Part shown: piece by piece, positions 41,839 through 55,702 of the stretch
Layout: each line of letters begins with the position of its first letter
Position numbering within the stretch: the stretch's first letter is position 1
Assembly (NCBI GenBank): GCA_963732115.1
Contig: CAVSYN010000034.1
Location: forward strand, 362,354 to 426,353
Direction: 5' to 3'
DNA: 64,000 nt
Source of the DNA: an uncultured Bacteroidales bacterium
Lineage (GTDB): Bacteria > Bacteroidota > Bacteroidia > Bacteroidales > VadinHA17
Notes under the pieces: model-generated
Databases searched by the model: none
Seen by the model: only the letters and a program-made list of their open reading frames with translations
Told to the model about the DNA's origin: nothing
Made by a program: the position numbers and the translations under genes

Positions 41839-42306
41839 ATGAAAAAATCCAAATCATTATTCTTTACCTTATTATTCTTAGTATCTGCGTTTTACGTTTA
41901 TGGGCAAAATCAGTCCGAATATGAGAAAAAGCTCCGTCAACAGGAGTCAAACAAGAAAATGGTAACCGAATTTTATCAGGAGCTCTTCGGAAACAAAAAT
42001 CCAGATGCCATCAATAAGTACATCGGTGATAAATACATACAGCATAACCCCGGCTTACCTGATGGTAAAGAGGCTCTGCTTCAGGCAGTAAAAGTCTGGT
42101 TCAAGGATGCACCCAAAGAAAAAGTGGATTTTCAGCATGTGGCAGCTGACGGGGACCTTGTATGGTTGCATGTCAGAAGCAAGTCCGGTCCAAAAGTAAG
42201 GGCAATAGTGGATATTTTCAGGATCGAGAACGGCAAAATTGTGGAACATTGGGATGTTATCCAGGAAATTCCGGAGAAGTCAGCCAATGATCATCCTATG
42301 TTTTAA
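41839..42306 (+). CDS. SnoaL-like / NTF2-fold protein with signal peptide
   Basis: 155-aa ORF. ..NKKMVTEFYQELFGNKNPDAINKYIGDKYIQHNPGLPDGKEAL.. and ..IFRIENGKIVEHWDV fit the SnoaL-like (COG4922-type) pattern. Confidence 0.65.
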   Translation: MKKSKSLFFTLLFLVSAFYVYGQNQSEYEKKLRQQESNKKMVTEFYQELFGNKNPDAINKYIGDKYIQHNPGLPDGKEALLQAVKVWFKDAPKEKVDFQHVAADGDLVWLHVRSKSGPKVRAIVDIFRIENGKIVEHWDVIQEIPEKSANDHPMF

Positions 42307-44214
42307 CATTCATGATTTTCTTAATTGCTTCAATATTCATCGGATTCACAATACTTTTTCCTTCAGGAGTATACAAAAAGTCGATTGTAGTCTTGTGCCG
42401 TTCAACAACTTTTGCTCTAACCAGTTTCCCGAGACTATTTAAAAGTTTGTTATCACCACTGAATGGTTCATCGATTATTGCGATGGCGGAAGGTAACCAC
42501 CTTGAAGGGAAAAGATCGCCATATACACCTCCCGGCTTATACTGATTTATTACTGATTCCAGTTCATTTAAAATTGCTTCCAGTCCTTCTATTTCGGTCA
42601 GACTGATATTATTGTTTTTTAGCCCATTTTGCCAATGCATCTCCGTTTGGTACAAGCAATGCGGAAGTATACTTATTCTGGTTATTATACAGCATCATCT
42701 GTTCAATAAACTGAGATCTGTCGGTTATAGTTTCTTCTATTCCTTCAGGACTGTATTTTTCTCCATCGTCTGAAATAAGCAGGCTCTTAAATCTTCCCAG
42801 AACATAAAGGAATCGGTCTTCATCAACATATCCCATATCCCCGGTATGGAGCCATCCTTCTCTAATTGTCTCCAGAGTAGCTTTTTCGTTTTTCCAGTAT
42901 CCTTTCATAACATTTTCTCCGCGGATTACTATTTCACCCTTTTCCCCGACAGGCATCTCATTTCCTTCCTCATCACATATTTTCAGGTCAAGGTTTTTAA
43001 CTATGTTTCCGGATGATCCCAGCTTATGCCTTTTTAGAACATTTGATGAAATTACCGGTGAAGCCTCAGTTAAACCATACCCCTGCAGCATAGGGATCCC
43101 TATTGCATAAAAAAACTTCTGAAGTTCAATATCAAGTAAGGCTGCTCCCCCGATGAAAAACTCCATTCTTCCGCCAAAGCTGGCTCTGATCTTTTTAAAA
43201 AGGATTATCGTCATATAGTTTGTATAATGGTTTAAGAAATATCTTCATTCCTTTCCCTTTATCCCATCCAATACCATTATAACTATAAGCAATCTTTAAT
43301 GCATGTTTGAAAAGCTTTTCTATAAACGGACCCTTTTCTCTTATTCCTTTTTCAATCCCTTTTCGAAAGCTTTTTGCCAGGGCTGGTGCAGTAAAGAGGA
43401 ATACGGGCTTAACCTCCCTTATATTTTCCGCGAGATGCTTGAGACTGTCAAGATAGGATTTGCCCGATTGAACAGCGGCCAGGCTGGCTCCCGTATTCAT
43501 CATGATATATATTCCCACTGTATGTGCAAAGGAATGGTCCCAAGGCAAGATTAGAAGCGTTGTCCACCATTCAAGAACATCCATAAGAGTAAGTGCCTGT
43601 TCAATATTGGCAGTATAGTTCCCATGAGACAGGATTATTCCCTTGGGATCTGCTGTAGTTCCTGAAGTGTAACAAATATTTGCATAATCATCGGGGCCGA
43701 CTGATTTTATTGTATCCATGAATTTATCATGGTTTGTATTCAGATATTCCTCCCCCAATTTCCTGACATCTCCAATAAATATTTCATCCCGGGAATAACT
43801 CTCCTTTGGGTCCAGAAGAATAACCTTTTCAAGATTCTTAAGATCATGTTTAATAGAATTAATCTTATCAATCTGAAGGGATGAGACTATCACCCATCTT
43901 GACTCTGAATGGTCTAGTCTGAATTTCAGATCAACACCCTCTTTAAGGGTGATGGTAAGAGGTACACTTATTGCACCAGTATGCAAAATTCCAAGCTCAC
44001 TTATTACCCACTCTGCCCGGGCTTCAGATAGTAACGCAATCCGGTCACCCTTTTTTATGCCAAGCGCCAATAGGCCTGCTGCTACCTTGTAAGCTTGCTC
44101 TTTGGTCTCTTTGTAAGTGATCGCTACGTATCTGTCAGTCTTTTTCTCAAGAAGATATGGATTGTTAGCATACTTCTGCGTGCTGATTTCCAATAAATCG
44201 ATTATTGTCTTCAT
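42296..44214 (-). pseudogene. long-chain fatty-acid--CoA ligase (AMP-binding family), two frameshifts
   Basis: Three colinear ORFs are involved. 43195-44214 carries YTSGTTADPKGIILSHGNY (the AMP-binding P-loop). 42609-43214 carries ..GYGLTEASPV.., ..GWLHTGDMGYVDEDRFLYVLGRFK... 42296-42655 is the C-terminal subdomain. Confidence 0.8.
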
Positions 44215-44627: not shown

Positions 44628-45500
44628 TTGATGTCCAAAGGAGTTCATCTCATTTATATAGGGATTTTTGTTGCAGTAACTTCGATTGTTCTTATCGGGC
44701 TCACTTATAGGGGCATATCTTACTACAGGGTGAGCATTGAGGAGAGATTTTATCATCCCGATCACAATAGATTTAAACCAAGCGGTTACATAGGCCACAG
44801 CCTGGGTATTACCGGATCATTGCTTATTCTTATCGGGGTGGGATCCTATATGGCCAGGAAAAGATACCGCTCCTTGTCCCGCTTCGGACTTCTGAAATAC
44901 TGGCTTGAGTTCCATATTTTTATGTGTATCCTGGGGACCATCCTGATTGTTTTTCATACAGCTTTTAAAATTGGAGGCCTGGCGGCGGTCAGCTTTTGGA
45001 GCATGGCAACTGTCTTTATCAGCGGTTTCGCAGGACGGGTTATTTATCTTCAGATCCCCAGAACTATGGAAGGCCGTGAACTTGATCTGAAAGAGGTAAG
45101 GGACATGAGAGCTGATGTTGTAGAAAAAATAAAGGGTTCTTATGATTTTGACAAACAGAGCTTTAAATTCATAACATTAGCAATTGAAAACAGATCAGGT
45201 CTTTACACCGGAAGCAGATTTACGGGTTTTCTGAAGAACTATTTCAGTGACAGGGCCTCTGTTACTGATGTAAGCAACTATCTGAAAGAAAATAAAATAT
45301 CAGGATCCGAATTTTCGCGGATCGTAGCCCTCGTAAAAGATGATCTCAGGCTCGGAAGGACGATCGAACGGCTTGAAATGATGAAAAACCTGTTCAGGTA
45401 CTGGCATGTTTTTCATCTTCCTTTTGCCATACTGATGCTTATCTTTATGATCTTTCATGTTATTGTTACTGTGGCTCTTGGTTACCGATGGATTTTTTAA
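44628..45500 (+). CDS. 5-TM membrane protein with two His-x13-His helices (candidate di-haem b-type electron carrier)
   Basis: 290-aa ORF with ATG at 44631. TM3 is ..WLEFHIFMCILGTILIVFHTAF.. and TM5 is ..WHVFHLPFAILMLIFMIFHVIV... Each has two His separated by exactly 13 residues. A ~110-aa soluble loop lies between TM4 and TM5. No family name was recognised. Confidence 0.6.
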   Translation: MMSKGVHLIYIGIFVAVTSIVLIGLTYRGISYYRVSIEERFYHPDHNRFKPSGYIGHSLGITGSLLILIGVGSYMARKRYRSLSRFGLLKYWLEFHIFMCILGTILIVFHTAFKIGGLAAVSFWSMATVFISGFAGRVIYLQIPRTMEGRELDLKEVRDMRADVVEKIKGSYDFDKQSFKFITLAIENRSGLYTGSRFTGFLKNYFSDRASVTDVSNYLKENKISGSEFSRIVALVKDDLRLGRTIERLEMMKNLFRYWHVFHLPFAILMLIFMIFHVIVTVALGYRWIF

Positions 45501-46834
45501 ATATGAACCAGACCATAATCAATATTTTGTTCTATTCCTTTACAGCAATTTTGTTCATTGCTGTAATCGCATTGTATCTGCGCAGAAAAGAAAGGCAATC
45601 CAGAATTACAGATGAAAAAATAAAAAAAGCCATTGAAGAAGGGCTTCATGAACCTATTTCCCTTCATCCATATGTCGATGTGAACAGATGCATGGGCACA
45701 GGCGCATGCGTTAAAGCCTGTCCTGAGAAGGATATACTCGGAATGAAGCATGGAAAAGCGATGGTGATAAACGCTTCGAGGTGTATTGGTCATGGAGCCT
45801 GTTTCCATGCATGCCCGACTGAAGCTATTACCTTACGGATCGGCACTGAGAAACGGGGTGTGGATCTGCCTCATGTGAGTAGAACATTTGAAACAAATGT
45901 TCCCGGGATATACATTGCAGGTGAGCTTGGAGGAATGGGTCTTATCAGAAACGCTGTTGAACAGGGAAAGCAGGCAGCTGAGAATATTATCAATTCAATT
46001 AAAAAGGATCACAAGGCTGATTATGATCTTGTTATCGTTGGGGCCGGCCCGGCGGGTATTTCGGCATCACTGGCAGCAAAAAAACACGGTATCAGGTTCC
46101 TGCTGCTTGAGCAGGATACTCTTGGCGGGACCGTTTTCACATATCCCCGGACAAAGGTGATAATGACTGCTCCGATGGATCTGCCGCTTATGGGCAAAGT
46201 AAAGCTTAGTGAGACAAGTAAACCGGTATTGCTTAATCTGTGGCAGACTGTACTTTCGAAATATGATATTGCTATTCGTGAAAACTGCAAAGTTGAATCA
46301 ATTGAACGCTCAGATAGTAACTTTGATGTAATTACGGCTGACGGTCAGCACTTCAATACGGCTTTTATTCTCCTGTCAACAGGAAGACGCGGGAGTCCGA
46401 GAAAGCTTAATGTGCCCGGGGAAGAGAAAGAAAAAGTTGCTTACAGACTCCTGGAACCGGAGGAGATCACAGGAAAAAATATTCTGATTGTGGGAGGCGG
46501 TGACTCAGCAATTGAATCTGCGCTGCTCCTTGCTGAGCAGAACCATGTCACAATTTCATACAGGAACGAAGTATTTAACAGGATTAAGCCCCTTAACAGC
46601 GTTGCCCTTAATAAAGCTCTTGCAGCAGGTAAGCTGGAAGTCAGGTTTAATACCAGCCTTGATAAAATAGAAGATGATTGCATAACCCTTTCAACTGCAA
46701 CTGAAGGACATAATTTGAGATTAAGCAATGACCTGGTATTTATTTTTGCAGGAGGGGAACTGCCGACTCAATTCCTTGAAAAAACCGGTATAAAAATTAC
46801 AAGGAAATTCGGGGAGACAATATTAAAGCACTAA
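45488..46834 (+). CDS. membrane-anchored ferredoxin-domain + FAD/NAD(P)-binding (TrxR/FNR-like) oxidoreductase
   Basis: 448-aa ORF whose start overlaps the upstream stop. It has an N-terminal TM segment (IINILFYSFTAILFIAVIALYL) and two Fe-S motifs, CMGTGACVKACP and CIGHGACFHACP. VIVGAGPAGISASLAAKKHG and ILIVGGGDSAIESALLLAE are Rossmann motifs. No CxxC redox disulfide was seen. Confidence 0.85.
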   Translation: MDFLNMNQTIINILFYSFTAILFIAVIALYLRRKERQSRITDEKIKKAIEEGLHEPISLHPYVDVNRCMGTGACVKACPEKDILGMKHGKAMVINASRCIGHGACFHACPTEAITLRIGTEKRGVDLPHVSRTFETNVPGIYIAGELGGMGLIRNAVEQGKQAAENIINSIKKDHKADYDLVIVGAGPAGISASLAAKKHGIRFLLLEQDTLGGTVFTYPRTKVIMTAPMDLPLMGKVKLSETSKPVLLNLWQTVLSKYDIAIRENCKVESIERSDSNFDVITADGQHFNTAFILLSTGRRGSPRKLNVPGEEKEKVAYRLLEPEEITGKNILIVGGGDSAIESALLLAEQNHVTISYRNEVFNRIKPLNSVALNKALAAGKLEVRFNTSLDKIEDDCITLSTATEGHNLRLSNDLVFIFAGGELPTQFLEKTGIKITRKFGETILKH

Positions 46835-46835
46835 A

Positions 46836-46866
46836 GGCAACAGGCAACAGGCAGCAGGCGACAGGG
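46836..46866. repeat. heptamer tandem tract (GGCAACA)2-GGCAGCA-GGCGACA-GGG
   Basis: Read directly at 46836-46866, between the oxidoreductase stop (46834) and the cytochrome start (46869/46896). Confidence 0.8.
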
Positions 46867-46868
46867 AA

Positions 46869-48494
46869 TTGATAGAATTGGAGCTTTTACAGGTTATGAC
46901 TAAAGGTAATATAAAACTGATCGGAATTGTTCTTGGCATCATTCTGATGTGCAGGGGTGGGTATGCCCAGATCTCGCCCGGTGATCTGTCGAAGGACCAT
47001 GAATTTCTTGAAGGGATATCGAACTGCACCAGATGTCATATTCTTGGAAATAAGATAACCGGCGAAAAATGCCTTGACTGCCATACCGAAATAAGGGAAA
47101 GGATTTCAGCTGGAAAGGGATATCATTCCTCTTCAGTAGTACAAGCGAAACAATGTATTGAGTGCCATAGTGATCATCATGGGAAAAACTTCCAGCTGGT
47201 AAGGATGAATCATTCAGAGTTTGATCATAAACTCACGGGCTTCGCCCTGTCAACTCCGCATTCCAGGCTGCAATGCCTGGATTGCCATAACGCAAAGTTC
47301 ATCACGGGTCAGAAAATAGCCGGGAAAAAATTCACCTACATGGGGGTGAAACCAGAATGCCTTACATGTCATGCCGATTATCATCTCAACACTCTTTCAG
47401 CTTCATGCCTTAATTGTCATGGGTCAGAAACCTTTAAGACGGTTCCTGCTTTCAGCCATGAAGATGCCCGTTTTAAGCTGGCAGGCAAACATAAGAACGT
47501 TGAGTGTGTCAAATGTCACAATTTTGAAACCATAAACGGGAATAAATTCCAGGAATTCCGCGGAGTGGCTTATGCTTCATGCACCGACTGTCATAAGGAT
47601 CCTCATCAGAACAAGTTCGGCCAGAACTGTCGCCAATGCCATAGCGAAGTCTCATTCACGACCATAAAGGGAATATCGAATTTTGATCATAATAAAACAA
47701 ACTTTCCTCTTGTTGATAAACATCTTGCCGTCGATTGCAAGTCATGCCACAAAATGAATCTTACAGATCCGCTTAAACATGATCGATGCACTGATTGTCA
47801 TTCAGATTACCATAAAGGCCAGTTTGCGAGAAACGGGATCCTCACTGATTGTTCCGAATGCCACAGTGTGAAAGGCTTTACAACTTTTTCCTACACTCTT
47901 GAGCAGCATAACCTTAGCTCCTTCCCGCTGAGGGGAGCACACTCAGCACAACCATGTTCAGAATGTCACAAAAAACAGGCAATGTGGTCATTTAAAGGGA
48001 TCGGAAAAGAGTGCATTGATTGTCACGATGATATCCATAAAACCTTTATCAGCACAAAGTACTATCCTGACGGGAATTGCAGGACCTGCCATACTGAATC
48101 AGCCTGGAGCGATGTCTCTTTTGATCATTCAAAAACCAGCTTCTCCCTGACAGGGGAGCATGCCAATCAGCGTTGTACCATCTGCCATATTACGCGAACA
48201 GCAGGTGCAGTTATTACGCAGCGTTTCGCGGATCTCCCGACAGATTGTTCTGCCTGTCACAGCGATAACCATCAGGGCCAGTTTAAAAACAACGCTGGAG
48301 AAAACTGCACCGATTGTCATGTAACGGAAAACTGGAAACCCTCAAGGTTCGACCATAACAAGACCGCCTTCAGGCTTGACGGGGAACATGTGAAAGTTTC
48401 CTGCACCGGGTGCCACAAACCTCAGCAAAACGGATCTGTCACCTACACACTCTATAAAATAAAAGACTACCAATGCGAATCCTGTCACTTTTAA
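46869..48494 (+). CDS. secreted multihaem cytochrome c, 20 CXXCH motifs
   Basis: 541-aa ORF, probable ATG 46896 (MTKGNIKLIGIVLGIILMCRGGYAQ signal peptide). I counted 20 CXXCH motifs, from CTRCH to the C-terminal CESCHF. It has repeated F(D/S)H..T.F.L.G.H....C..CH units of the doubled-CXXCH type. Confidence 0.9.
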   Translation: MIELELLQVMTKGNIKLIGIVLGIILMCRGGYAQISPGDLSKDHEFLEGISNCTRCHILGNKITGEKCLDCHTEIRERISAGKGYHSSSVVQAKQCIECHSDHHGKNFQLVRMNHSEFDHKLTGFALSTPHSRLQCLDCHNAKFITGQKIAGKKFTYMGVKPECLTCHADYHLNTLSASCLNCHGSETFKTVPAFSHEDARFKLAGKHKNVECVKCHNFETINGNKFQEFRGVAYASCTDCHKDPHQNKFGQNCRQCHSEVSFTTIKGISNFDHNKTNFPLVDKHLAVDCKSCHKMNLTDPLKHDRCTDCHSDYHKGQFARNGILTDCSECHSVKGFTTFSYTLEQHNLSSFPLRGAHSAQPCSECHKKQAMWSFKGIGKECIDCHDDIHKTFISTKYYPDGNCRTCHTESAWSDVSFDHSKTSFSLTGEHANQRCTICHITRTAGAVITQRFADLPTDCSACHSDNHQGQFKNNAGENCTDCHVTENWKPSRFDHNKTAFRLDGEHVKVSCTGCHKPQQNGSVTYTLYKIKDYQCESCHF

Positions 48495-49684
48495 TATTAT
48501 CCATGCTTTTGATTGCAGCATATCAGAGGGTCCAGTCGCCTCACGGACCCGATTTTAAGGTAAGCTGTAAAACCTGCCATAGCACAAAGGGATGGCAGCT
48601 TGATAAGGAAATATATTCATTCGATCATAACAGGACAAAACTCCCGCTTTCGGGACAGCACACAAGCCTGAACTGCAAGGAGTGTCATCCTACTCTTGTG
48701 TTTTCACAGGCAAAATCAAGCTGCAGCGATTGCCATCATGATGTTCATCAAACAACTGTAGGGAATGACTGCGCCCGATGCCATACTCCGGTTTCATGGC
48801 TTGTCAGTAATATTACGGAAATTCATCAGATGAGCAGGTTCCCGCTGCTGGGGCCACACAGGACGGCCGATTGTGTCCAGTGCCATAGATCAGAGAATCC
48901 GGTCCGGTTTGATGTTCTTGGGATTAATTGTATTGATTGTCATAGAAGTAACTTTCTGGCAACCACAAATCCAAATCATGCCCAGGCCGGATTTTCGCAG
49001 GATTGTTCTTCATGCCATCTGGTTAATTCGTTTCAATGGGCCGGAGCAGGATTTGATCATTCGTTTTTCCCACTTGTGCTGGGACATTCTGTACCAAAAT
49101 GCGCTGATTGTCATACTACCGGAAATTACAGGGATGCAAAAACCGATTGCTATTCGTGTCATCAGCAGAATTATCTGGGGACCACAAACCCCGATCACAA
49201 CGCTTCAAAATTCTCAACAAACTGTCTGGATTGCCATTCTCTTAACCCTGGCTGGAAACCTGCAACTTTCGATCACAGTGCTTTTCCGCTTACACTCGGA
49301 CATGCGTCAGTAGCCTGCACTTCATGCCACCTAAATGGCAATTATTCCACAACCTCTCCTGAGTGTGCTTCCTGTCACCTGACTGACTATACAAATACTG
49401 CTAATCCGGGTCATGTATCTCTCAATTTCTCACATACCTGCACCGATTGCCATACTACTACCCCCGGGTGGAAACCAGCTGCATACAAGCAGCATGATTC
49501 ACAATTCTTTCCGATATATTCCGGTTCGCACAACGGCAAGTGGAAAAATTGTACGGATTGCCATACGAATTCAGCCAGCTACGCTCAGTTCAACTGTATT
49601 ATCTGCCATGCTAATGCTCACAGGGGCAGTAATTATACAAATGCACAATGTTATCAATGCCATCCTACAGGAAGGGGTGATTAA
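48473..49684 (+). CDS. secreted multihaem cytochrome c, 16 CXXCH motifs
   Basis: 403-aa ORF whose ATG overlaps the upstream stop by 22 nt. It has the signal peptide MRILSLLILSMLLIAAYQ and 16 CXXCH motifs by my count. Units of the FDH..FPL.LGH....C..CH type alternate with TNP.H......C..CH units. Confidence 0.9.
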   Translation: MRILSLLILSMLLIAAYQRVQSPHGPDFKVSCKTCHSTKGWQLDKEIYSFDHNRTKLPLSGQHTSLNCKECHPTLVFSQAKSSCSDCHHDVHQTTVGNDCARCHTPVSWLVSNITEIHQMSRFPLLGPHRTADCVQCHRSENPVRFDVLGINCIDCHRSNFLATTNPNHAQAGFSQDCSSCHLVNSFQWAGAGFDHSFFPLVLGHSVPKCADCHTTGNYRDAKTDCYSCHQQNYLGTTNPDHNASKFSTNCLDCHSLNPGWKPATFDHSAFPLTLGHASVACTSCHLNGNYSTTSPECASCHLTDYTNTANPGHVSLNFSHTCTDCHTTTPGWKPAAYKQHDSQFFPIYSGSHNGKWKNCTDCHTNSASYAQFNCIICHANAHRGSNYTNAQCYQCHPTGRGD

Positions 49685-49692
49685 AACATAAT

Positions 49693-51329
49693 ATGAAAAA
49701 TCTGGTATTTATAATCTGCTTTATTCTGTCCTTTAGCAAACCTCTCCAGGGACAGCCTGCTTCCCGGAATATTACCGGTCAGGTTTCTTTCATTTCTTCA
49801 CAGAATATTTATGTAAGGTTCGGGAACACGTCAGGAATAAGTGTTCATGATACACTTTATATTTCATCAGGCGATAAACTGGTACCAGTCCTGGTTGTAA
49901 ACAGCCTTTCTACCACCTCCTGCCTTTGCACAGCCATTTCAGGAGAAGATCTCCCTGTCGGTCATGTAATTATCGCGAAAAAAAATCCTTTAATTGCAGC
50001 GAAGGAAGAGAAGACCCTCGAAGATGTTAAAAAGGAAACTCCTGTCCCTGTCCAGGAAAATAAACCTGTTTCCGGAACAACTAGCTTAATAACTTCAGGC
50101 TCAAAGAATGCGAGTGTCCCATCTAAACAGCGAATAAGCGGGAGCATATCAGCTGCTTCATATTCAGATTTTTCTAATACAACCGGCGCTGATGTCCAGC
50201 GATTTCGTTATACCCTGTCAGTCGATGCCAAAGATATAGCTGACTCGCACTTTTCGGCTGAGACATACATTTCATTCAGGCATAAATCAGGCAACTGGAG
50301 CGAAGTCAGGAGTGATATTTTCAATGCGCTGAAAATATACAGTCTGGCAGTTAAGTATGATATTGACAGCACGACTCATTTAAGCCTTGGCCGCCAGATT
50401 AACCCGAGAATTTCGAGTATCGGATCCTTTGACGGACTCCAGGTTGAAAAGTCAATAAAAAGGTTTACGGCAGGCCTGATTGGCGGTTCCCGACCGGATT
50501 ACCTGAATTTCGGATTTGACCCAAAACTTCTGCAGTTTGGAGGATACCTGTCATATGATATCGTTAACGACCGGGTATATTCAGGGACATCTCTGGCTTT
50601 CATGGAACAGCTTAATTCAGGAAAAACCGACAGAAGATTCCTCTATATTCAGCATTCAGGTTCGCCTGTCAAGAATCTTAATGTATTCAGCTCGTTTGAA
50701 ATTGATCTTTTCAAAATAAAAAATAATAAACCCGCCTCCGAATTCGACCTCACTTCTCTTTACATGTCAATGAATTACAGGTTGTTTAACGGATTCACTA
50801 TTGGAGGCTCCTATGATGCCAGAAAGAATCCGGTATATTATGAAACTTTTAAATCACTTATTGATTCATTGGTGGAAAACGGATTTCGGCAGAGTTACCG
50901 GTTACACACCAATATACGTATAGCAAATTCATTTGTTCTTGGCTTGCAATCGTCCTGGCGCTTTCAGAAAACAGACCTTCATCAGTCAAAAAACCTCTCT
51001 GGATATTTCAGCTACAACCATCCGGTAAGAACTATTTCTCAGCAACGCTTTCAGGAAATTATATCGAAACTGCTTATTTAAAAGGGATGACAGCGGGGAT
51101 TACGATCCTGAACAGCCTGGTGTCAGGGAAGATTCAGACAAGTGTTGGTTACAGTTATCAGGATTACAAGCTTTCCGAAAGCAGTCAGAAAATTATTCAG
51201 CATACCGGCAAAGCTGACCTGTACTGCCAGGTAGCAAAGAAGACATTTCTTTCTGTTAATTACGAAATCACCTTTGAGCCAAACAGGACATATAACCGCC
51301 TTTACCTTCAGGCTATTAAACGCTTCTAA
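49693..51329 (+). pseudogene. outer-membrane beta-barrel-like protein (porin candidate of the cytochrome cluster), one apparent frameshift
   Basis: ORF 49693-51081 has the signal peptide MKNLVFIICFILSFSKPLQGQ, a small N-terminal domain, a low-complexity linker and then alternating-hydrophobicity segments. ORF 51087-51329 ends ..YNRLYLQAIKRF. A 1-nt shift at ~51015-51026 joins them: ..YFSYN..GKNYFSATLSGNYIETAYLKGMTAGITILN... The joined product would be ~545 aa with a terminal Phe. Confidence 0.6.
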
Positions 51330-51410: not shown

Positions 51411-52724
51411 TTATTTCATATTATCATATTTCGCCTGAAAACGCCTGTATAGTTGCTTATGCTTATTATCAAGACTTATATTTCTCCCGGTAATAAACGC
51501 CAGTTCAACGTTGTTGGTCCTCATGTCCAGAAGATCACCGGTGGACACAACAATATTTGCATCTTTTCCTGTTTCGAGCGAGCCTGTTATATCATCAATT
51601 CCCAGAATTTTTGCCGTATTGAGGGTTACTGTCTGCAGCGCTTCCTCTTTTGTCAGTCCATAAGCTGCTGTTTCTCCTGCTGCAAATGGAAGGTTGCCAT
51701 ACGCCTGGCTCGAATAGGTCAGACCCACAAGTATCCCCTCCTTGTGAAACATTGATGCCAGCTTGAATGGCTCCTTTATATCGCTGTAATCATATTTGGG
51801 AAGACTCAGCGGATTGTCCAGCAGCACAGCAATATTGTTTTCCTTGAGGAAATCTTTCAGATCCCAGGCTGATTCATCAGCTTCGGTCAGAACAATTTTT
51901 TTAACGCCATACCTCTTTGCGAATAATACAGCCTCCATGATCCCTTTGGCTTCCGGGGCGGTCAGGAAGAGTGTTTTGGTTCCGTTAAAGAGCCCTTTCA
52001 TTGCTTCAAGCCTGAGGTTGAAATCAACCGGTTTTTCGAGGGTGGCATAGGCTACTGCATCTGTGAAGATCTTCTCAAGAAGCTCGACATTTTTGTCGTA
52101 AGTGTTTGATCCTGTTTGCGGAATGGCGAACATTGCCCCTCTCCTTCCAGCCGGAGCGCTTTTCCTGGGCCAGCCAAGCATCAGACCGTTATCTGGTCTG
52201 TAAGCTGCATCTTTCCAGTTCCAGGCATCAAGCTGAACGATACTTGCGGTTCCGGGAAGCAATGTGCCTGCAGGCACAATCTGGGCAAGCAGAATCCCGT
52301 TCGACCTTATGACAGGAATTACATGTGAATCGGTGTTGTAGGCAGCAATTGCCCTTACATCAGGATTGAGATCCCCTGTTTCCCTTGAATCGTTTGCCAC
52401 ATCCACTCCACCTCCGATCTCTATCAGTCCAAGGGAAGTATTCGGAAAAATAAGCCCCGGATAAACCTGTTTTCCAGTAACATCAATGACTTCATAACCC
52501 GATTTGTCAAGCTTGCTTTCAGTGACTTTTCCTACCCAGGTAATCTTACCGGCCGAAAATGCAATAAGTCCGTTTTCTATTACTTCTCCTGTTCCTGTAT
52601 GAATTGTTCCGCCTGTAAGGATTACCGGTTTTTTCTGGGCCGGAGCAACAACAGGGTTCTGAGCCGGTGCCTGAATAACCAGGGCAGCCAGCACCATAAT
52701 TGAAAATACAGTTTTTGTTCTCAT
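51411..52724 (-). CDS. secreted amidohydrolase-family protein (~437 aa member of a conserved pair)
   Basis: It has the signal peptide MRTKTVFSIMVLAALVIQAPAQ. Other features are ..GGTIHTGTG.., ..PGLIFPNTSLGLIEIGGG.. and the C-terminal ..GSLETGKDANIVVSTGDLLD... This is the amidohydrolase superfamily pattern. Confidence 0.8.
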   Translation of the reverse strand: MRTKTVFSIMVLAALVIQAPAQNPVVAPAQKKPVILTGGTIHTGTGEVIENGLIAFSAGKITWVGKVTESKLDKSGYEVIDVTGKQVYPGLIFPNTSLGLIEIGGGVDVANDSRETGDLNPDVRAIAAYNTDSHVIPVIRSNGILLAQIVPAGTLLPGTASIVQLDAWNWKDAAYRPDNGLMLGWPRKSAPAGRRGAMFAIPQTGSNTYDKNVELLEKIFTDAVAYATLEKPVDFNLRLEAMKGLFNGTKTLFLTAPEAKGIMEAVLFAKRYGVKKIVLTEADESAWDLKDFLKENNIAVLLDNPLSLPKYDYSDIKEPFKLASMFHKEGILVGLTYSSQAYGNLPFAAGETAAYGLTKEEALQTVTLNTAKILGIDDITGSLETGKDANIVVSTGDLLDMRTNNVELAFITGRNISLDNKHKQLYRRFQAKYDNMK

Positions 52725-55702
52725 CGTCTTGGGAAATTTGGATTGTTAGAAGGGGTAGGCTGGGATTCTCTCAGGATATTGGCGATAATCCTGTTCCGTT
52801 CGATGTCCATCTGCGATTTCATCTGCCTGTCGTCCTCTTCATCGAAATAGATGGTCCCGTCAACCATAGTTTTGTTTGCATGCGAATAAACTGAAAGGGG
52901 ATTATCTGTCCATAGTACCAGATCGGCATCCTTGCCCACTTTTATGCTGCCTATCCTGTCGTCGAGATGAAGGATCTTAGCCGGATTAAGAGTTACAAGC
53001 TTAAGCGCTTCGATTTCAGAAATCACCGCCGTACTTTACTACTTTTGCAGCTTCCTGGTTGAGTCTTCTTCCCATTTCGGCATCATCGGAATGCAGGCAT
53101 GTCAGAACACCCTGATTCAGAAGCATTGCTGCATTATAGGCAATTCCTTCATAGACTTCATATTTATAATCCCACCAGTCCGAAAATACTGAAGCAGCCG
53201 CTCCATGTTCCTTTATCTGGTCAGCAATTTTATATCCTTCATTGAAATGAATAAATGTGTTTACTTTCACTCCGAAGTCCCTGGCAATATCCATCAGCAT
53301 GGTTCCTTCCGATTGAACGTAAGTATGACAGGTAATAAAGCTCCGTTTTTCCAGCACATCAACAAGAGCATCAAGCTCAAGATCGCGTCTGGGAGGTATT
53401 TTACCAACCCGGTCTGCAGGCTTAAGGGCATTCCAGGACTTCCACTTATTGTTATAATCGACTGCCCTCTGGTAAGCATCCCTGATAATCTGTTCCGCTC
53501 CCATCCTTGTATTAGGATACCGGCTGGCTGAACGCTTGACGTTCTCACCAAGGGCATGTTTCAGGAAACCGGGCTGGTTGGCAATTTTCAGCTCCTCAGC
53601 CGGAAGGCCCCACCTGTGTTTGATTATTATCGACTGTCCTCCGATGGGATTTGCTGATCCATGCAGAATGTGAGCCGCAGTGACGCCCCCGGCAAGCTGC
53701 CTGTAAATGGACATATCCTCCGGATCAACAACATCACCTGCCCTGACTTCAGAAGTGATGGCCTGTCCCATTTCATTGGTGGCATCAAGAGCAATATGGG
53801 AATGTTCATCTATCAGACCCGGAGGTAAGATGCATTCCGGTAGCATCAATGACCTTAACGTCCGCCGGCTGAAAGGTTTTTTCCGATTTTCGCTATCTTG
53901 CCCTTTCTGTACCAGAACATCTGTATTCAGAAGATTGCCCTCTTTTTCATTGGTCCAAACAGTGGCATTTTTAAAAAGGACATCTTCCTGAATGGGAAGC
54001 TCAGTCCGGCCATAAGCAGTAAACGGGTGAATGATCTTGCCCAAGGCAGGAACCGGAGGTGAAGGTCTCTTCCGTTGGTCAGGCTCAGTGGCCGGGCTGT
54101 TGTATGCGGCTTTCCAGCTGATCCATTTTCCGTTATCAAGCTGTCCCCTGCCCTCAAGATCTTTTCCTGAGGAATAACCGGTAAGCCTGAACCTGGCACG
54201 TGATCTTTCAAACGTTATGCTTACAAGGTCCTTGTCAGTTGTAAATGTGGCACCTCTGACCTGAATAGTATCATAAGTAAGCTTAACAGTTGGTTTATCA
54301 AATGTTCCGGACAAAACCAATTTGAATTTAACAGTATCGACAGTAAGATCATATGTGCCTCTTAAATCCCTGATCCTCAGGTCAACAAACCTGTAAGGAA
54401 CACCCTGTATCCAATTCTCATAGATTACACAATCATCGTTGAAAATATTTCCTGAGGTTATGAGAAGGTTGGCAATCATGTTCTTTTTTATTGCCCCAAC
54501 AAGGTCACCGGCGCCTATCAGGGATGCTGGTGTGGTTGTCAGCGCTTTAAGAGCTTCAGCTTCGGGAAGTCCGTATTTGACCGCCTTGCGAAGGTTGGTA
54601 AGGAAAGCGTGCGCTGCCTCAGGTCAGATGATGTAATAGCGAAGATGAGTCCTGCTTCAGAAACCTTCGCCAGGTTTGAAGGGGCAAGTTCATAATGTTT
54701 AAGGGTTCCATACGATACAGTTGCAGCATCATATGGATCCTTTACATCCGGAGCTTCGGGGAAGTTTACAGGGATTATAAGTTTGTTGCCTGCCTTTTTT
54801 ATTTCATCCAAAGCCTGGTATTCATCCCCTCCCCCTTTGATTATATAGCTGATGCCAAATTCTTTTCCGATTCTGTCAGCCCGCATCACCTCAAGTTTAT
54901 TGGTTACCTCGAAAACCTGCGGAAGGGCAAGATTTGAAGTATAAGCTTCAAGTCCATTGTCATGAAAATATCCGGGAGGGAGCTGTTTGTACCATTGGGC
55001 ATCATAGTTTACCTGCCTCAGCAATGCAATGATTCCAAATTGTGAAGCAGGATAAATATCCAGCGATCGTGACCTGCCCAGTGTATAGTTTGCGGTTGTT
55101 TTGTTCTTTATAAGAACGCTGTTTGCCTTCCCCTCACCGGTTGTGACAAGCGCTGAGGTTCCCCGGGCAATACCGTCAGTCCTGAAGGTGACAACAGCGC
55201 CAAATCCTGCCTGGCGGTACTCGCCTGCCGTTTTCGTATCAGGTATAAACTCGCTTGAAACATCATATGATGCGTTTATGCCATCATTCCAGTAATCAGC
55301 AATCCTGGGCTCAGTGGTCGGGACAGAGCCCTGCCTGCCGCCCTGCTGCTGGACGATAAAAGCTGCAAAAGGATTAGCATCCGCAGGCTGGGCCTGGGTC
55401 TTTATCCCATAATTACCTGCATATGCATCAACAAGTGATGGATAAACCGTTTTGCCAGTCAGATCAATAATGACAGTGCCTTCAGGGAATGAAAGGTTCT
55501 GTCCGACTGCCTGTATCCTTCCTTCAGAAACAAGAATGTCTGCATTCTCAAGAGTGGTCTGATAATCAACCACCACACGGGCATTTTTAAAGCCATAGAT
55601 CTCAACTCTTCTGTCGCTTACTCCCGCAACAGGACTATTATCCTGCTGACCCGACAGATTAAGCGGAATCAGAAGAAGAAGCAGGTAAAAGTGTTTTCTC
55701 AT
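52721..55702 (-). pseudogene. large (~990 aa) secreted amidohydrolase-family protein, two frameshifts
   Basis: Three colinear ORFs: 54539-55702 (with signal peptide), 53016-54479 (..GLIDEHSHIALD.. metal-binding HxH region) and 52721-53026 (..GSIKVGKDADLVLW..). The frame breaks lie near 54480-54640 and 53016-53026. Confidence 0.75.

Follow-up and report, generated by a model that had tools for sequence, protein, structure and literature searches.

The operon described here lies on the + strand at positions 44628-51329 of a 64-kb window, the whole stretch of DNA that was analysed, which comes from an uncultured Bacteroidales bacterium. All coordinates below are those of the window unless a locus is named. 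The listing of open reading frames (ORFs) places five co-directional genes in this region, overlapping or almost abutting, as stated in an earlier reading of the sequence (the original prediction). The g1 gene (44631-45500, with a TTG start at 44628) encodes an inner-membrane protein of 289 aa with five transmembrane helices (5 TM) and the signature of the inner-membrane protein (IMP) of the PCC3 systems. It overlaps by 13 nt with g2 (45488-46834), which encodes a 448 aa protein with a TM anchor followed by iron-sulfur (FeS) and FAD/NAD(P)H domains. The g3 gene (46869-48494), for a 20-haem c-type cytochrome, overlaps by 22 nt with g4 (48473-49684), for a 16-haem c-type cytochrome, and g5 (49693-51329) encodes an outer-membrane beta-barrel of ~545 aa after repair of a frameshift. 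Between g2 and g3 there are 34 nt when g3 begins at its TTG and 61 nt when it begins at the ATG at 46896, and the gap between g4 and g5 is 8 nt, not the 9 nt reported earlier.

The ATG start of g1 at 44631 was adopted from the identical database protein P0121, and its numbering is used here. The protein carries W91-x3-H95-x13-H109 in TM3, S131-G-F-A-G135 in TM4 and W258-x3-H262-x13-H276 in TM5; counted from the TTG start, the four His are H96/H110 and H263/H277. Among homologues, these signature residues are invariant or almost so. By the positive-inside rule, the N-terminus is predicted to be cytoplasmic and the C-terminus outside, with the RKRYR loop (76-89) and a loop of ~115 aa between TM4 and TM5 both in the cytoplasm. 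A 5-TM protein with two His-x13-His helices had been predicted from the sequence, and the possibility that the His pairs would prove unconserved had been raised; both pairs are invariant in 40 close homologues, and the four His, W258 and P143 are invariant in 24 homologues of 26-43 % identity. At the sequence level, the two His pairs of g1, spaced by 13 on two TM helices, agree with the spacing of 13 or 12 that characterizes the ferric-reductase/NOX proteins. However, g1 has 5 TM and not the six-helix domain, and no match to Ferric_reduct (PF01794) was found for g1 at E<=0.1.

A profile search with g1 recovered 3,277 clusters at 50 % identity among 1.84 billion representatives. Against DUF4405 (PF14358), g1 scores 22.8 bits, where the cut-off is 26.7, and DUF4405 matches at E<=0.01 (best 9.4e-7, over TM5 only) were seen in 21 of the 40 homologues. 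A DUF4405 protein has been found experimentally to bind haem b (PMC11334425). Weak matches to Ni_hydr_CYTB were present in 8 of the 40. Together with the motifs, the DUF4405 matches lead us to regard g1 as a putative di-haem cytochrome b. Many g1 homologues (e.g. P0154 and P0166) carry the JGI/IMG name 'sulfur relay (sulfurtransferase) DsrC/TusE family protein'. This name is spurious, as it has no Pfam support and the loop is without Cys, and it looks like a propagated mis-annotation.

The g2 protein begins with a single TM helix (residues 8-32) followed by RRKERQSR. As neither twin-arginine nor Sec cleavage features are present, most of g2 should lie in the cytoplasm. In Pfam, g2 matches Fer4 families, Pyr_redox_3 (9.9e-43; 146.9 bits against a cut-off of 30) and Pyr_redox_2. 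Its score against TIGR04018 (YpdA), 175 bits with a cut-off of 340, is below equivalog level. The nearest solved structures are those of the NADPH-dependent YpdA/Bdr (7a76 and 7a7b), followed by ferredoxin-NADP reductases (FNRs) of the TrxR type. However, g2 differs from the stand-alone YpdA, Bdr and TrxR-type FNRs in having an extra TM anchor and an FeS domain. The flavoprotein part is without a redox-active CxxC, and g2 does not have the FAD_binding_8 plus NAD_binding_6/1 composition of FNR-type dehydrogenases.

The FeS motifs of g2 are C68-x5-C74-x3-C78-P and C99-x5-C105-x3-C109-P (45689-45817, residues 68-110). In 73 sequences, the six Cys are invariant. Where the second Cys would usually be, motif 1 has Ser/Thr (S/T71) and motif 2 has a His, H102, that never varies; H107 is almost invariant. 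The same three-Cys pattern is found in relatives of 45-60 % identity, including those from distant lineages. Hence, of the two ferredoxin-like Cys motifs originally predicted, both are present and are accompanied by Fer4 matches, but each has only three Cys. A canonical 2x[4Fe-4S] ferredoxin, with two CxxCxxCxxxCP motifs and eight Cys, is therefore not supported by the sequence. By established ferredoxin chemistry, the presence of three Cys per motif combined with the His or Ser/Thr substitution suggests that the clusters are [3Fe-4S] and/or His-ligated rather than low-potential 2x[4Fe-4S]. With such clusters, the transfer of electrons from flavin to haem b could run downhill.

The numbers of CXXCH motifs given earlier for the two cytochromes are exact, namely 20 in g3 and 16 in g4. 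The occurrence of 36 CXXCH in 944 residues by chance is impossible. The density is ~25 residues per haem, and the further His, 23 in g3 (43 in total) and 18 in g4, are enough for bis-His ligation of each haem. Both proteins have a Sec signal peptide, cleaved between A and QISPGDL in g3, for which the ATG at 46896 is the likely start, and before SPHG in g4. Matches in Pfam are to c7/c3 modules in g4 and to c7/c3-like tri-haem modules in g3, where nine stretches match Cytochrome_C7; no sequence relative of g3 was found in the PDB. The g3 class has a haem number fixed at 20 or 23 across loci and a conserved mature N-terminus (Q[IL]SPG[DE]L..H..LEG..NCT.CH, preceded by the A of the cleavage site) that is also seen in distant phyla. 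In the g4 class, the N-terminus (A then QSPHG…) and the C-terminus (…GY.YNS.AC..CHP.G) are conserved, the repeat core is variable, and the haem number ranges from 10 to 85 CXXCH. We take g3 as the periplasm-spanning cytochrome and g4 as a barrel-threaded or extracellular one. A lipobox or a C-terminal domain of the type IX secretion system (T9SS) was looked for in the cytochromes and none was found.

The protein encoded by g5 consists of a signal peptide, an N-terminal beta domain of ~70 aa, a disordered linker of ~45 aa and a barrel of ~22 strands that ends in KRF. An AlphaFold2 (AF2) model built from 43 homologues has a signal helix, the beta domain at 30-100, the disordered linker at 104-147 and 22 strands (DSSP) over 151-548, with pLDDT mostly 80-93 in the barrel strands. 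More than 1,115 homologues of 535-549 aa were found, and the C-terminal Phe, the usual mark of BAM-assembled barrels, is invariant in them. It had been allowed that the barrel candidate might model as a non-porin fold or as too narrow for a cytochrome, but the model is a transmembrane beta-barrel of ~22 strands. By standard barrel geometry, 22 strands would correspond to ~40 Å across (C-alpha), as in TonB-dependent receptors, and for this reason the modelled barrel should be wide enough for a slim haem wire. The family has no match in Pfam, NCBIfam or the PDB sequences, and Foldseek returned only generic large outer-membrane barrels, namely the FimD/PapC ushers, AlgE, MOMP and Occ (E 1e-9 to 1e-6, TM-score 0.3-0.5). 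Assignment to MtrB/PioB or to another named family was therefore rejected. The N-terminal beta domain (residues 30-100 of the homologue P0001, window ~49780-49990) is conserved and includes two almost invariant Cys, C81 and C83. It might plug the barrel or serve for the docking of a cytochrome, and MtrB is not known to have a counterpart of it.

Although the prediction of a barrel ending in KRF stands, g5 is not a single ORF. It is read as two frames of one gene, 49693-51081 and 51087-51329, with a single base missing at ~51019-51024 (between …AAC CAT and CC GGT AAG…) when aligned with P0001, the full-length homologue of 549 aa and 92 % identity that was used as reference. Genes nearby are broken in a similar manner. 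That for the AMP-binding enzyme at 42609-44214 (region 42296-44214) is in two or three pieces, with Pfam profile positions 5-271 and 284-384 on separate ORFs, and the C-terminus of the amidohydrolase at 52721-54479 (region 52721-55702) is split off from the gene body. Because these neighbours are affected too, the frameshift in g5 is probably an assembly indel, arising from long-read error, rather than the sign of a true pseudogene. The barrel gene of L001, from a metagenome-assembled genome (MAG) of the MFD series, is likewise read as two pieces.

The original prediction considered the composition of this conduit to be unprecedented, and this has to be withdrawn. In the definition given by He, Barco, Emerson & Roden (2017), PCC3 comprises a porin, an extracellular cytochrome (median 34 and up to 85 haems), a periplasmic one (median 21) and an IMP of ~300 aa with 5 TM, SGxxG on TM4 and W-x3-H-x13-H on TM3 and TM5 (PMC5566968). 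The barrel, the two large cytochromes and the IMP found here are the same combination, with the IMP signature in g1, the barrel co-located and one of the two high-haem cytochromes conserved, the other variable and repeat-rich. The same authors likened the IMP to the TM domain of FRD/NOX and to cytochrome b, proposed that it holds two haems b and is 'possibly quinone-active', and mentioned 'another redox protein' near some pairs of IMP and cytochrome, as well as an Fe-S gene in PCC4 (PMC5566968). A FAD/NAD(P)H partner is not mentioned in the published descriptions of PCC3 that were consulted, and a search of the accessible literature found nothing on a flavoprotein partner or on quinone-independent extracellular electron transfer (EET) by such a module. 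For Bacteroidetes, 'novel PCCs' have been noted in MAGs (PMC6344600), giant undescribed cytochromes with a suggested 'capacitor-like' role were reported in Saprospiraceae (PMC11495043), and a '61 + 20 haem porin cluster' without synteny to characterised PCCs, and with no mention of an inner-membrane component, was reported in Lentimicrobium (PMC13013709).

Relatives of g1 in Bacteroidota were found in at least 284 species-representative genomes, or at least 552 when a second query was used. Families named among them are the Saprospiraceae, Lewinellaceae, Lentimicrobiaceae, Roseivirgaceae and Cyclobacteriaceae, and many further records are labelled only to order (Bacteroidales, Marinilabiliales, Chitinophagales and Cytophagales). 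The 160 closest genome loci are all from MAGs. For analysis of synteny, 80 Bacteroidota loci with 10-kb flanks were used. In every one of them with room, g2 is next to g1, and cytochrome genes follow g2 in ~73 of the 80. The gene after g2 is for a 20-haem (mostly Bacteroidales and Lentimicrobiaceae records) or a 23-haem cytochrome (Saprospiraceae and Lewinellaceae), and then come one to three cytochromes of strongly variable size with 10-85 CXXCH. Where a locus is long enough to include the position of the barrel, the barrel was found there in 34 of 38 cases. When the ORFs of these loci were clustered, the conserved neighbours were limited to four families, namely g2, the 20/23-haem cytochrome, the variable cytochromes and the barrel. 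A terminal reductase was not among them. It had been considered earlier that the genes might not co-occur elsewhere, or that related clusters might always adjoin a periplasmic terminal reductase; neither was observed, and co-occurrence of the genes extends to other phyla and to clusters with a changed gene order.

Occasional neighbours are an ECF sigma factor, CcsBA, a GW lipoprotein of ~250 aa and sensor kinases. Among the extra genes in relatives (L245, L063, L060 and L030), there is a fused ResB/CcsA synthase; in 12 loci a lipoprotein with a GW domain is encoded downstream of the barrel, and in 8 an ECF sigma factor is encoded divergently. A tblastn search of the 64-kb window for the synthase, the GW lipoprotein and the ECF sigma factor found none. 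In L040, L053 and L080, the gene for the 23-haem cytochrome is followed by those for YceI and sensor kinases.

The only clearly cultured host found, which came from a search of a plasmid collection, is Emticicia oligotrophica DSM 17448 (Cytophagales), where the whole operon is on the plasmid pEMTOL02 (L245, NC_018749.1, 8899-21483). The order is ccsBA, g1 (48 % identity), g2 (60 %), a 23-haem and a 40-haem cytochrome, the barrel (30 %) and the GW lipoprotein, and the RefSeq names are for hypothetical, NAD(P)-binding or cytochrome c3 family proteins. The g1 and g2 genes there are EMTOL_RS21090 and RS21095. CcsBA is also directly upstream of g1-g2 in L063 and is inside the cluster in L060. On the - strand of the plasmid (2112-8527), a divergent set includes genes for an ECF sigma factor, an outer-membrane beta-barrel, a Rieske 2Fe-2S protein, a DUF5777 barrel, YceI, a protein with a c-type cytochrome domain and a PAS sensor. 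This set may be co-regulated with the cluster.

Outside the Bacteroidota, one set was from Acidobacteriota, with 72 species genomes (mostly with Terriglobales, Terriglobia and Acidobacteriaceae labels, and including 'Acidobacteria bacterium AB60', a record whose title has no MAG label) and a g1 that is ~27 % identical. These genomes and three further contigs that carry the query protein itself make up 75 loci, and g1 and g2 are adjacent in 73 of them. The gene order is g3-like, g4-like, a 993-aa AMIN-domain outer-membrane protein, a 273-aa protein, g1 and g2; thus, the barrel of the g5 type is replaced by the AMIN protein of ~993 aa and the conserved 273-aa protein (L171, 5202-9004; L173-L244). 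In other clusters, the genes are rearranged. The order is g1, TPR protein, g3, g4, barrel, g2 in L160, L164 and L167; g4-like, barrel, TPR protein, g1, g3-like in L161; and 23-haem cytochrome, 16-haem cytochrome, 555-aa barrel, 252-aa protein, g1 in L162. The TPR protein, found in non-Bacteroidota clusters, is a membrane-anchored protein of 194-246 aa with weak similarity to CcmH/CycH and is directly after g1 in L160 and L164 and directly before it in L161; it may serve in assembly or as a scaffold.

In a further group of clusters, g2 is exchanged for a different reductase. In two Chloroflexota MAGs (L168, 7412-11075; L169, 7492-10736), a Pyr_redox_2 flavoprotein resembling rubredoxin reductase is directly upstream of g1, and the two genes overlap in L168. 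The g1-like protein of 255-266 aa keeps both His pairs and is followed by a membrane-anchored 17-haem cytochrome, and there is no barrel. This three-gene set may be the same electron exporter in cells without an outer-membrane barrel. On the plasmid pMSHV of Sphingobium herbicidovorans, a gene for an 825-aa protein with Pyr_redox_3, two cNMP-binding domains and Fer4 overlaps an IMP-like gene with both W-x3-H-x13-H motifs and SGVFG. On pBBta01 of Bradyrhizobium sp. BTAi1, the partner is an FNR-like protein with NAD_binding_1 and 2Fe-2S (Fer2) domains that is truncated by an IS element. Both plasmid-borne IMP-like genes, which were matched from distant g1 relatives at E 3e-3 to 7e-5, adjoin multihaem cytochromes, and the Chloroflexota, Bradyrhizobium and Sphingobium clusters each have one cytochrome of 7-17 haems. 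In different phyla, therefore, four non-orthologous reductases of the NAD(P)H type, g2 and three others, adjoin this family of membrane proteins. As four such partners would otherwise be hard to explain, the g1 family would most simply take electrons from, or give them to, a pyridine-nucleotide flavoenzyme, and the split, NOX-like input originally proposed for this operon is strengthened.

The spacer between g2 and g3 (46835-46868, + strand), directly after the g2 stop, consists of about four tandem 7-nt units, GGCAACA, GGCAACA, GGCAGCA and GGCGACA. Relatives have other short periodic repeats in the same position, GGCAAAA four times in L004 and TGCGGTG-like units in L001. A scan of the window with Rfam, spacer repeats included, gave zero matches. 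Scans for sigma-70 promoters and terminators did no better than on shuffled sequence, and the Bacteroidota -7 motif TAnnTTTG was not found upstream of g1.

In the reading that we favour, and to which we give a probability of about 0.5, the operon is a PCC3-type trans-envelope conduit that has its own cytoplasmic NAD(P)H input enzyme and carries electrons outwards. The g2 protein, anchored in the membrane with its FeS and flavin domains in the cytoplasm, would bind FAD and oxidise NAD(P)H on it, and would pass single electrons via its two non-canonical three-Cys FeS clusters to g1, with which it would be in contact. Two bis-His haems b held between TM3 and TM5 of g1, at H95/H262 on the cytoplasmic side and H109/H276 on the periplasmic side, would carry the electrons across the membrane. 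The 20-haem g3, which at ~25 residues per haem should be long enough, would cross the periplasm, and the 16-haem g4 would take the electrons through the ~22-strand g5 barrel, as a cytochrome resident in it, or beyond it to an extracellular acceptor. As acceptor, a mineral of Fe(III) or Mn(IV), humic quinones or another cell as partner would be candidates, possibly also O2. Outward flow and the bypass of quinones, both part of the original prediction, are what we infer from this arrangement. Export of electrons from NAD(P)H dissipates the membrane potential and conserves no energy (compare NOX), and the role proposed as most likely is therefore redox balancing, that is, an electron sink that would regenerate NAD(P)+ in a fermentative or O2-limited heterotroph. 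The surroundings of the cluster in the window, glycoside hydrolases, TonB receptors and similar genes of a polysaccharide degrader, fit such a role. Coupling of g1 and g2 is supported by the overlap of their genes, by their adjacency in Bacteroidota and Acidobacteriota, by the retention of both in the rearranged L160, L164 and L167, and by the presence of both on the Emticicia plasmid. The recruitment of CcsBA into the cluster in some relatives was counted in favour of a conduit. A bolder form of this reading would make g1-g2 a quinone-independent NAD(P)H:cytochrome c exporter of a split NOX-like kind and, with the g4-class cytochromes and the barrel, a third independently evolved class of complete conduit; we hold this tentatively, at somewhat short of an even chance.

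Several observations weigh against the favoured reading. The AF2 model of g1 is of moderate quality (pLDDT 71.6, pTM 0.45), and neither Foldseek against the PDB nor a profile search of the PDB sequences found anything significant, hence no solved di-haem relative. Since the model search gave no structural confirmation, the claim that g1 is a di-haem protein rests on the motifs and the weak DUF4405 matches. No g1-g2 fusion was seen among the best 150 of the 3,277 representative clusters; a 418-aa chimera, P0326, was considered as one and looks like an assembly or frameshift artefact. The g4 protein is without a lipobox, T9SS signal or known export route, and the barrel gene is frameshifted in this window. 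Many of the hosts, such as Saprospiraceae and Emticicia, are aerobes with no obvious need for mineral respiration. As to PCC3 itself, a survey of Gallionellaceae reported it (PMC9900912), later work describes four genes that are 'functionally unverified', and the PCC3 clusters of Sideroxydans ES-1 are down-regulated on Fe(II). Finally, the published four-gene proteobacterial PCC3 are without g2, which indicates that the flavoprotein is not obligatory, and no g2 is present within the visible stretch of L161 or L162.

The last two points also bear on the possibility that PCC3 is linked to quinones here, as its describers proposed for the membrane protein of PCC3 and PCC4 (PMC5566968). In that case, g1 would be a quinol/quinone-reactive cytochrome b of the HydC/FdnI/CbcL kind, passing electrons from menaquinone to the cytochromes, and g2 an accessory that serves as alternative donor, regulator or for poising. 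The weak matches of 8 of the 40 g1 homologues to Ni_hydr_CYTB, a quinone-reactive family, point the same way. However, the translational overlap of g1 and g2 and their pairing from Bacteroidota to Acidobacteriota speak against this, and the independent recruitment of four NAD(P)H-type reductases beside the g1 family is hard to explain with a quinone partner, so we think a quinone link unlikely, while giving it real weight. We consider it clearly improbable that the system takes up electrons for delivery by g1 and g2 to NAD(P)+ or another cytoplasmic acceptor, with Fe(II) or reduced humics outside the cell, a cathode or a partner cell as the source. Multihaem wires are in principle reversible, the membrane component of one PCC3 copy rose in iron-oxidising cells of Sideroxydans CL21, and PCC3 was first described in the genomes of Fe(II) oxidisers and modelled as an uptake route (PMC5566968). 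However, inward flow would go against the membrane potential and uphill to NAD(P)+ (~-320 mV) and would need energy coupling, for which no component is encoded here, the glycoside hydrolases and TonB receptors of the window mark the hosts as organoheterotrophs, and the response of ES-1 to Fe(II) is in the opposite direction.

The presence of CcsBA upstream of or inside the cluster in Emticicia, L063 and L060, and of the CcmH/CycH-like TPR protein beside g1 in L160, L161 and L164, would also be expected if g1 and g2 served biogenesis or maintenance, exporting reductant that keeps the haem iron or the CXXCH thiols of apocytochromes reduced for CcsBA and providing no respiratory input; the proteins that need maturation do carry up to 85 haems. 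However, thiol reduction normally proceeds via relays of the CcdA/DsbD type and not via haem b, no CcsBA is near the cluster in the window or in most loci, and a direct redox partnership is the simpler explanation where, as in Chloroflexota, Bradyrhizobium and Sphingobium, the module is paired with a single cytochrome of 7-17 haems. We rate this role as more improbable still. The least probable of the alternatives is that the cytochromes are a periplasmic store, or a reductase that detoxifies soluble oxidants, with no passage across the outer membrane and with the barrel as an ordinary porin or export usher. It would account for the missing surface-export signal of g4 and for the FimD/PapC ushers among the best fold matches of the barrel, and a 'capacitor-like' role has been suggested for the giant Saprospiraceae cytochromes (PMC11495043). 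Against it, the link between barrel and cytochromes persists from phylum to phylum and despite rearrangement, the Chloroflexota variant is exactly the one that has no barrel, and among the loci examined the barrel family occurs only in this genomic context.

Of all the steps in most predicted EET systems, the one by which electrons leave the cytoplasmic membrane is understood least. For PCC3-type clusters, the favoured reading provides a concrete input that can be tested, in which a flavoprotein that uses NAD(P)H and has two unusual FeS clusters would dock on a protein with two haems b, and the recurrent, independent recruitment of NAD(P)H reductases in five phyla supports that model. Uncultured members of Bacteroidota and Acidobacteriota from soil, sediment, lakes and wastewater plants very commonly carry the system, which was counted in at least 552 species of the former phylum and about 72 of the latter, and giant 'undescribed' cytochromes have been reported in such habitats without the context of a pathway (PMC11495043 and PMC13013709). 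With Emticicia oligotrophica DSM 17448, a cultured and sequenced host with a complete, plasmid-borne operon can be named. If the favoured reading is correct, many supposed plain fermenters or aerobes would be able to respire extracellular acceptors without the quinone pool, which would matter for the turnover of carbon, for the cycling of iron and humics and for bioelectrochemical uses. In the bolder form of the reading, fermentative or O2-limited heterotrophs could dump the reducing equivalents of pyridine nucleotides onto minerals, humics, partner cells or O2, and the exporter would also be found in aerobic heterotrophs of activated sludge and soil, on clusters that are mobile on plasmids.

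Among the known systems, MtrCAB of Shewanella, MtoAB and PioAB share the principle of multihaem cytochromes passing through an outer-membrane barrel and encoded in one operon. However, the scores of g3 against DmsE/MtrA (TIGR03508; 55 bits, cut-off 192) and of g4 against MtrC/OmcA (TIGR03507; 15 bits, cut-off 209) are far below the cut-offs, MtrB was not matched by g5 in the PDB sequences, NCBIfam or Pfam and is absent from the top 50 fold matches, and the window cluster encodes neither a CymA-type quinol dehydrogenase nor a lipoprotein cytochrome. The Pcc and Ext systems of Geobacter (OmaB-OmbB-OmcB and ExtABCD) also combine a barrel with a periplasmic and an outer multihaem cytochrome, and c7/c3-like modules are shared. 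They differ in that the GSU2203 decahaem family is matched only weakly (30 bits, cut-off 325) and the outer cytochrome here is not a lipoprotein. Their input is also different, coming from menaquinol via ImcH, CbcL or CbcBA and not from a pair of flavoprotein and cytochrome b.

The features predicted here from sequence for g1 and g2, two haems b held by His-x13-His and a cytoplasmic NAD(P)H flavoenzyme, are those of the ferric-reductase superfamily (NOX, FRE, STEAP, and MsrQ with Fre), and the split into membrane protein and reductase is as in MsrQ/Fre. Unlike the members of that superfamily, g1 has 5 TM and not 6 and no PF01794 match, and the dehydrogenase is of the TrxR/YpdA type with FeS and not FAD_binding_8/NAD_binding_6. 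The proposed acceptor is a multihaem cytochrome c, where theirs is O2, Fe(III) chelates or MsrP. A similar logic, with a cytoplasmic flavin/FeS protein, a five-helix di-haem b anchor and a partner on the periplasmic side, is found in the type B succinate:quinone reductases and QFR, and in Tmc and Hmc of sulfate reducers cytoplasmic FeS proteins are linked to periplasmic multihaem cytochromes c. However, all of these have other electron partners or substrates and no outer-membrane component, and no sequence relationship was detected to HmcA (26-29 bits, cut-off 400). The weak DUF4405 matches are a point of likeness between g1 and the 'flavinylation-associated' cytochromes b with that domain (PMC11334425).

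The closest likeness is to PCC3, with which the cluster, when compared by published description, shares the barrel, a 'periplasmic' cytochrome of ~20-27 haems, a repeat cytochrome of 10-85 haems, the IMP of ~300 aa and the low number of residues per haem. It differs in the addition of the translationally coupled g2, in its hosts, which are Bacteroidota and Acidobacteriota heterotrophs and not proteobacterial Fe(II) oxidisers, and in the barrel, with ~22 predicted strands as against up to 42 transmembrane regions in the proteobacterial PCC3 porins (PMC5566968). The cluster is a PCC3-type system plus a conserved NAD(P)H-FeS flavoprotein; the core had already been predicted, and the coupling to the flavoprotein and the breadth of its distribution are new.

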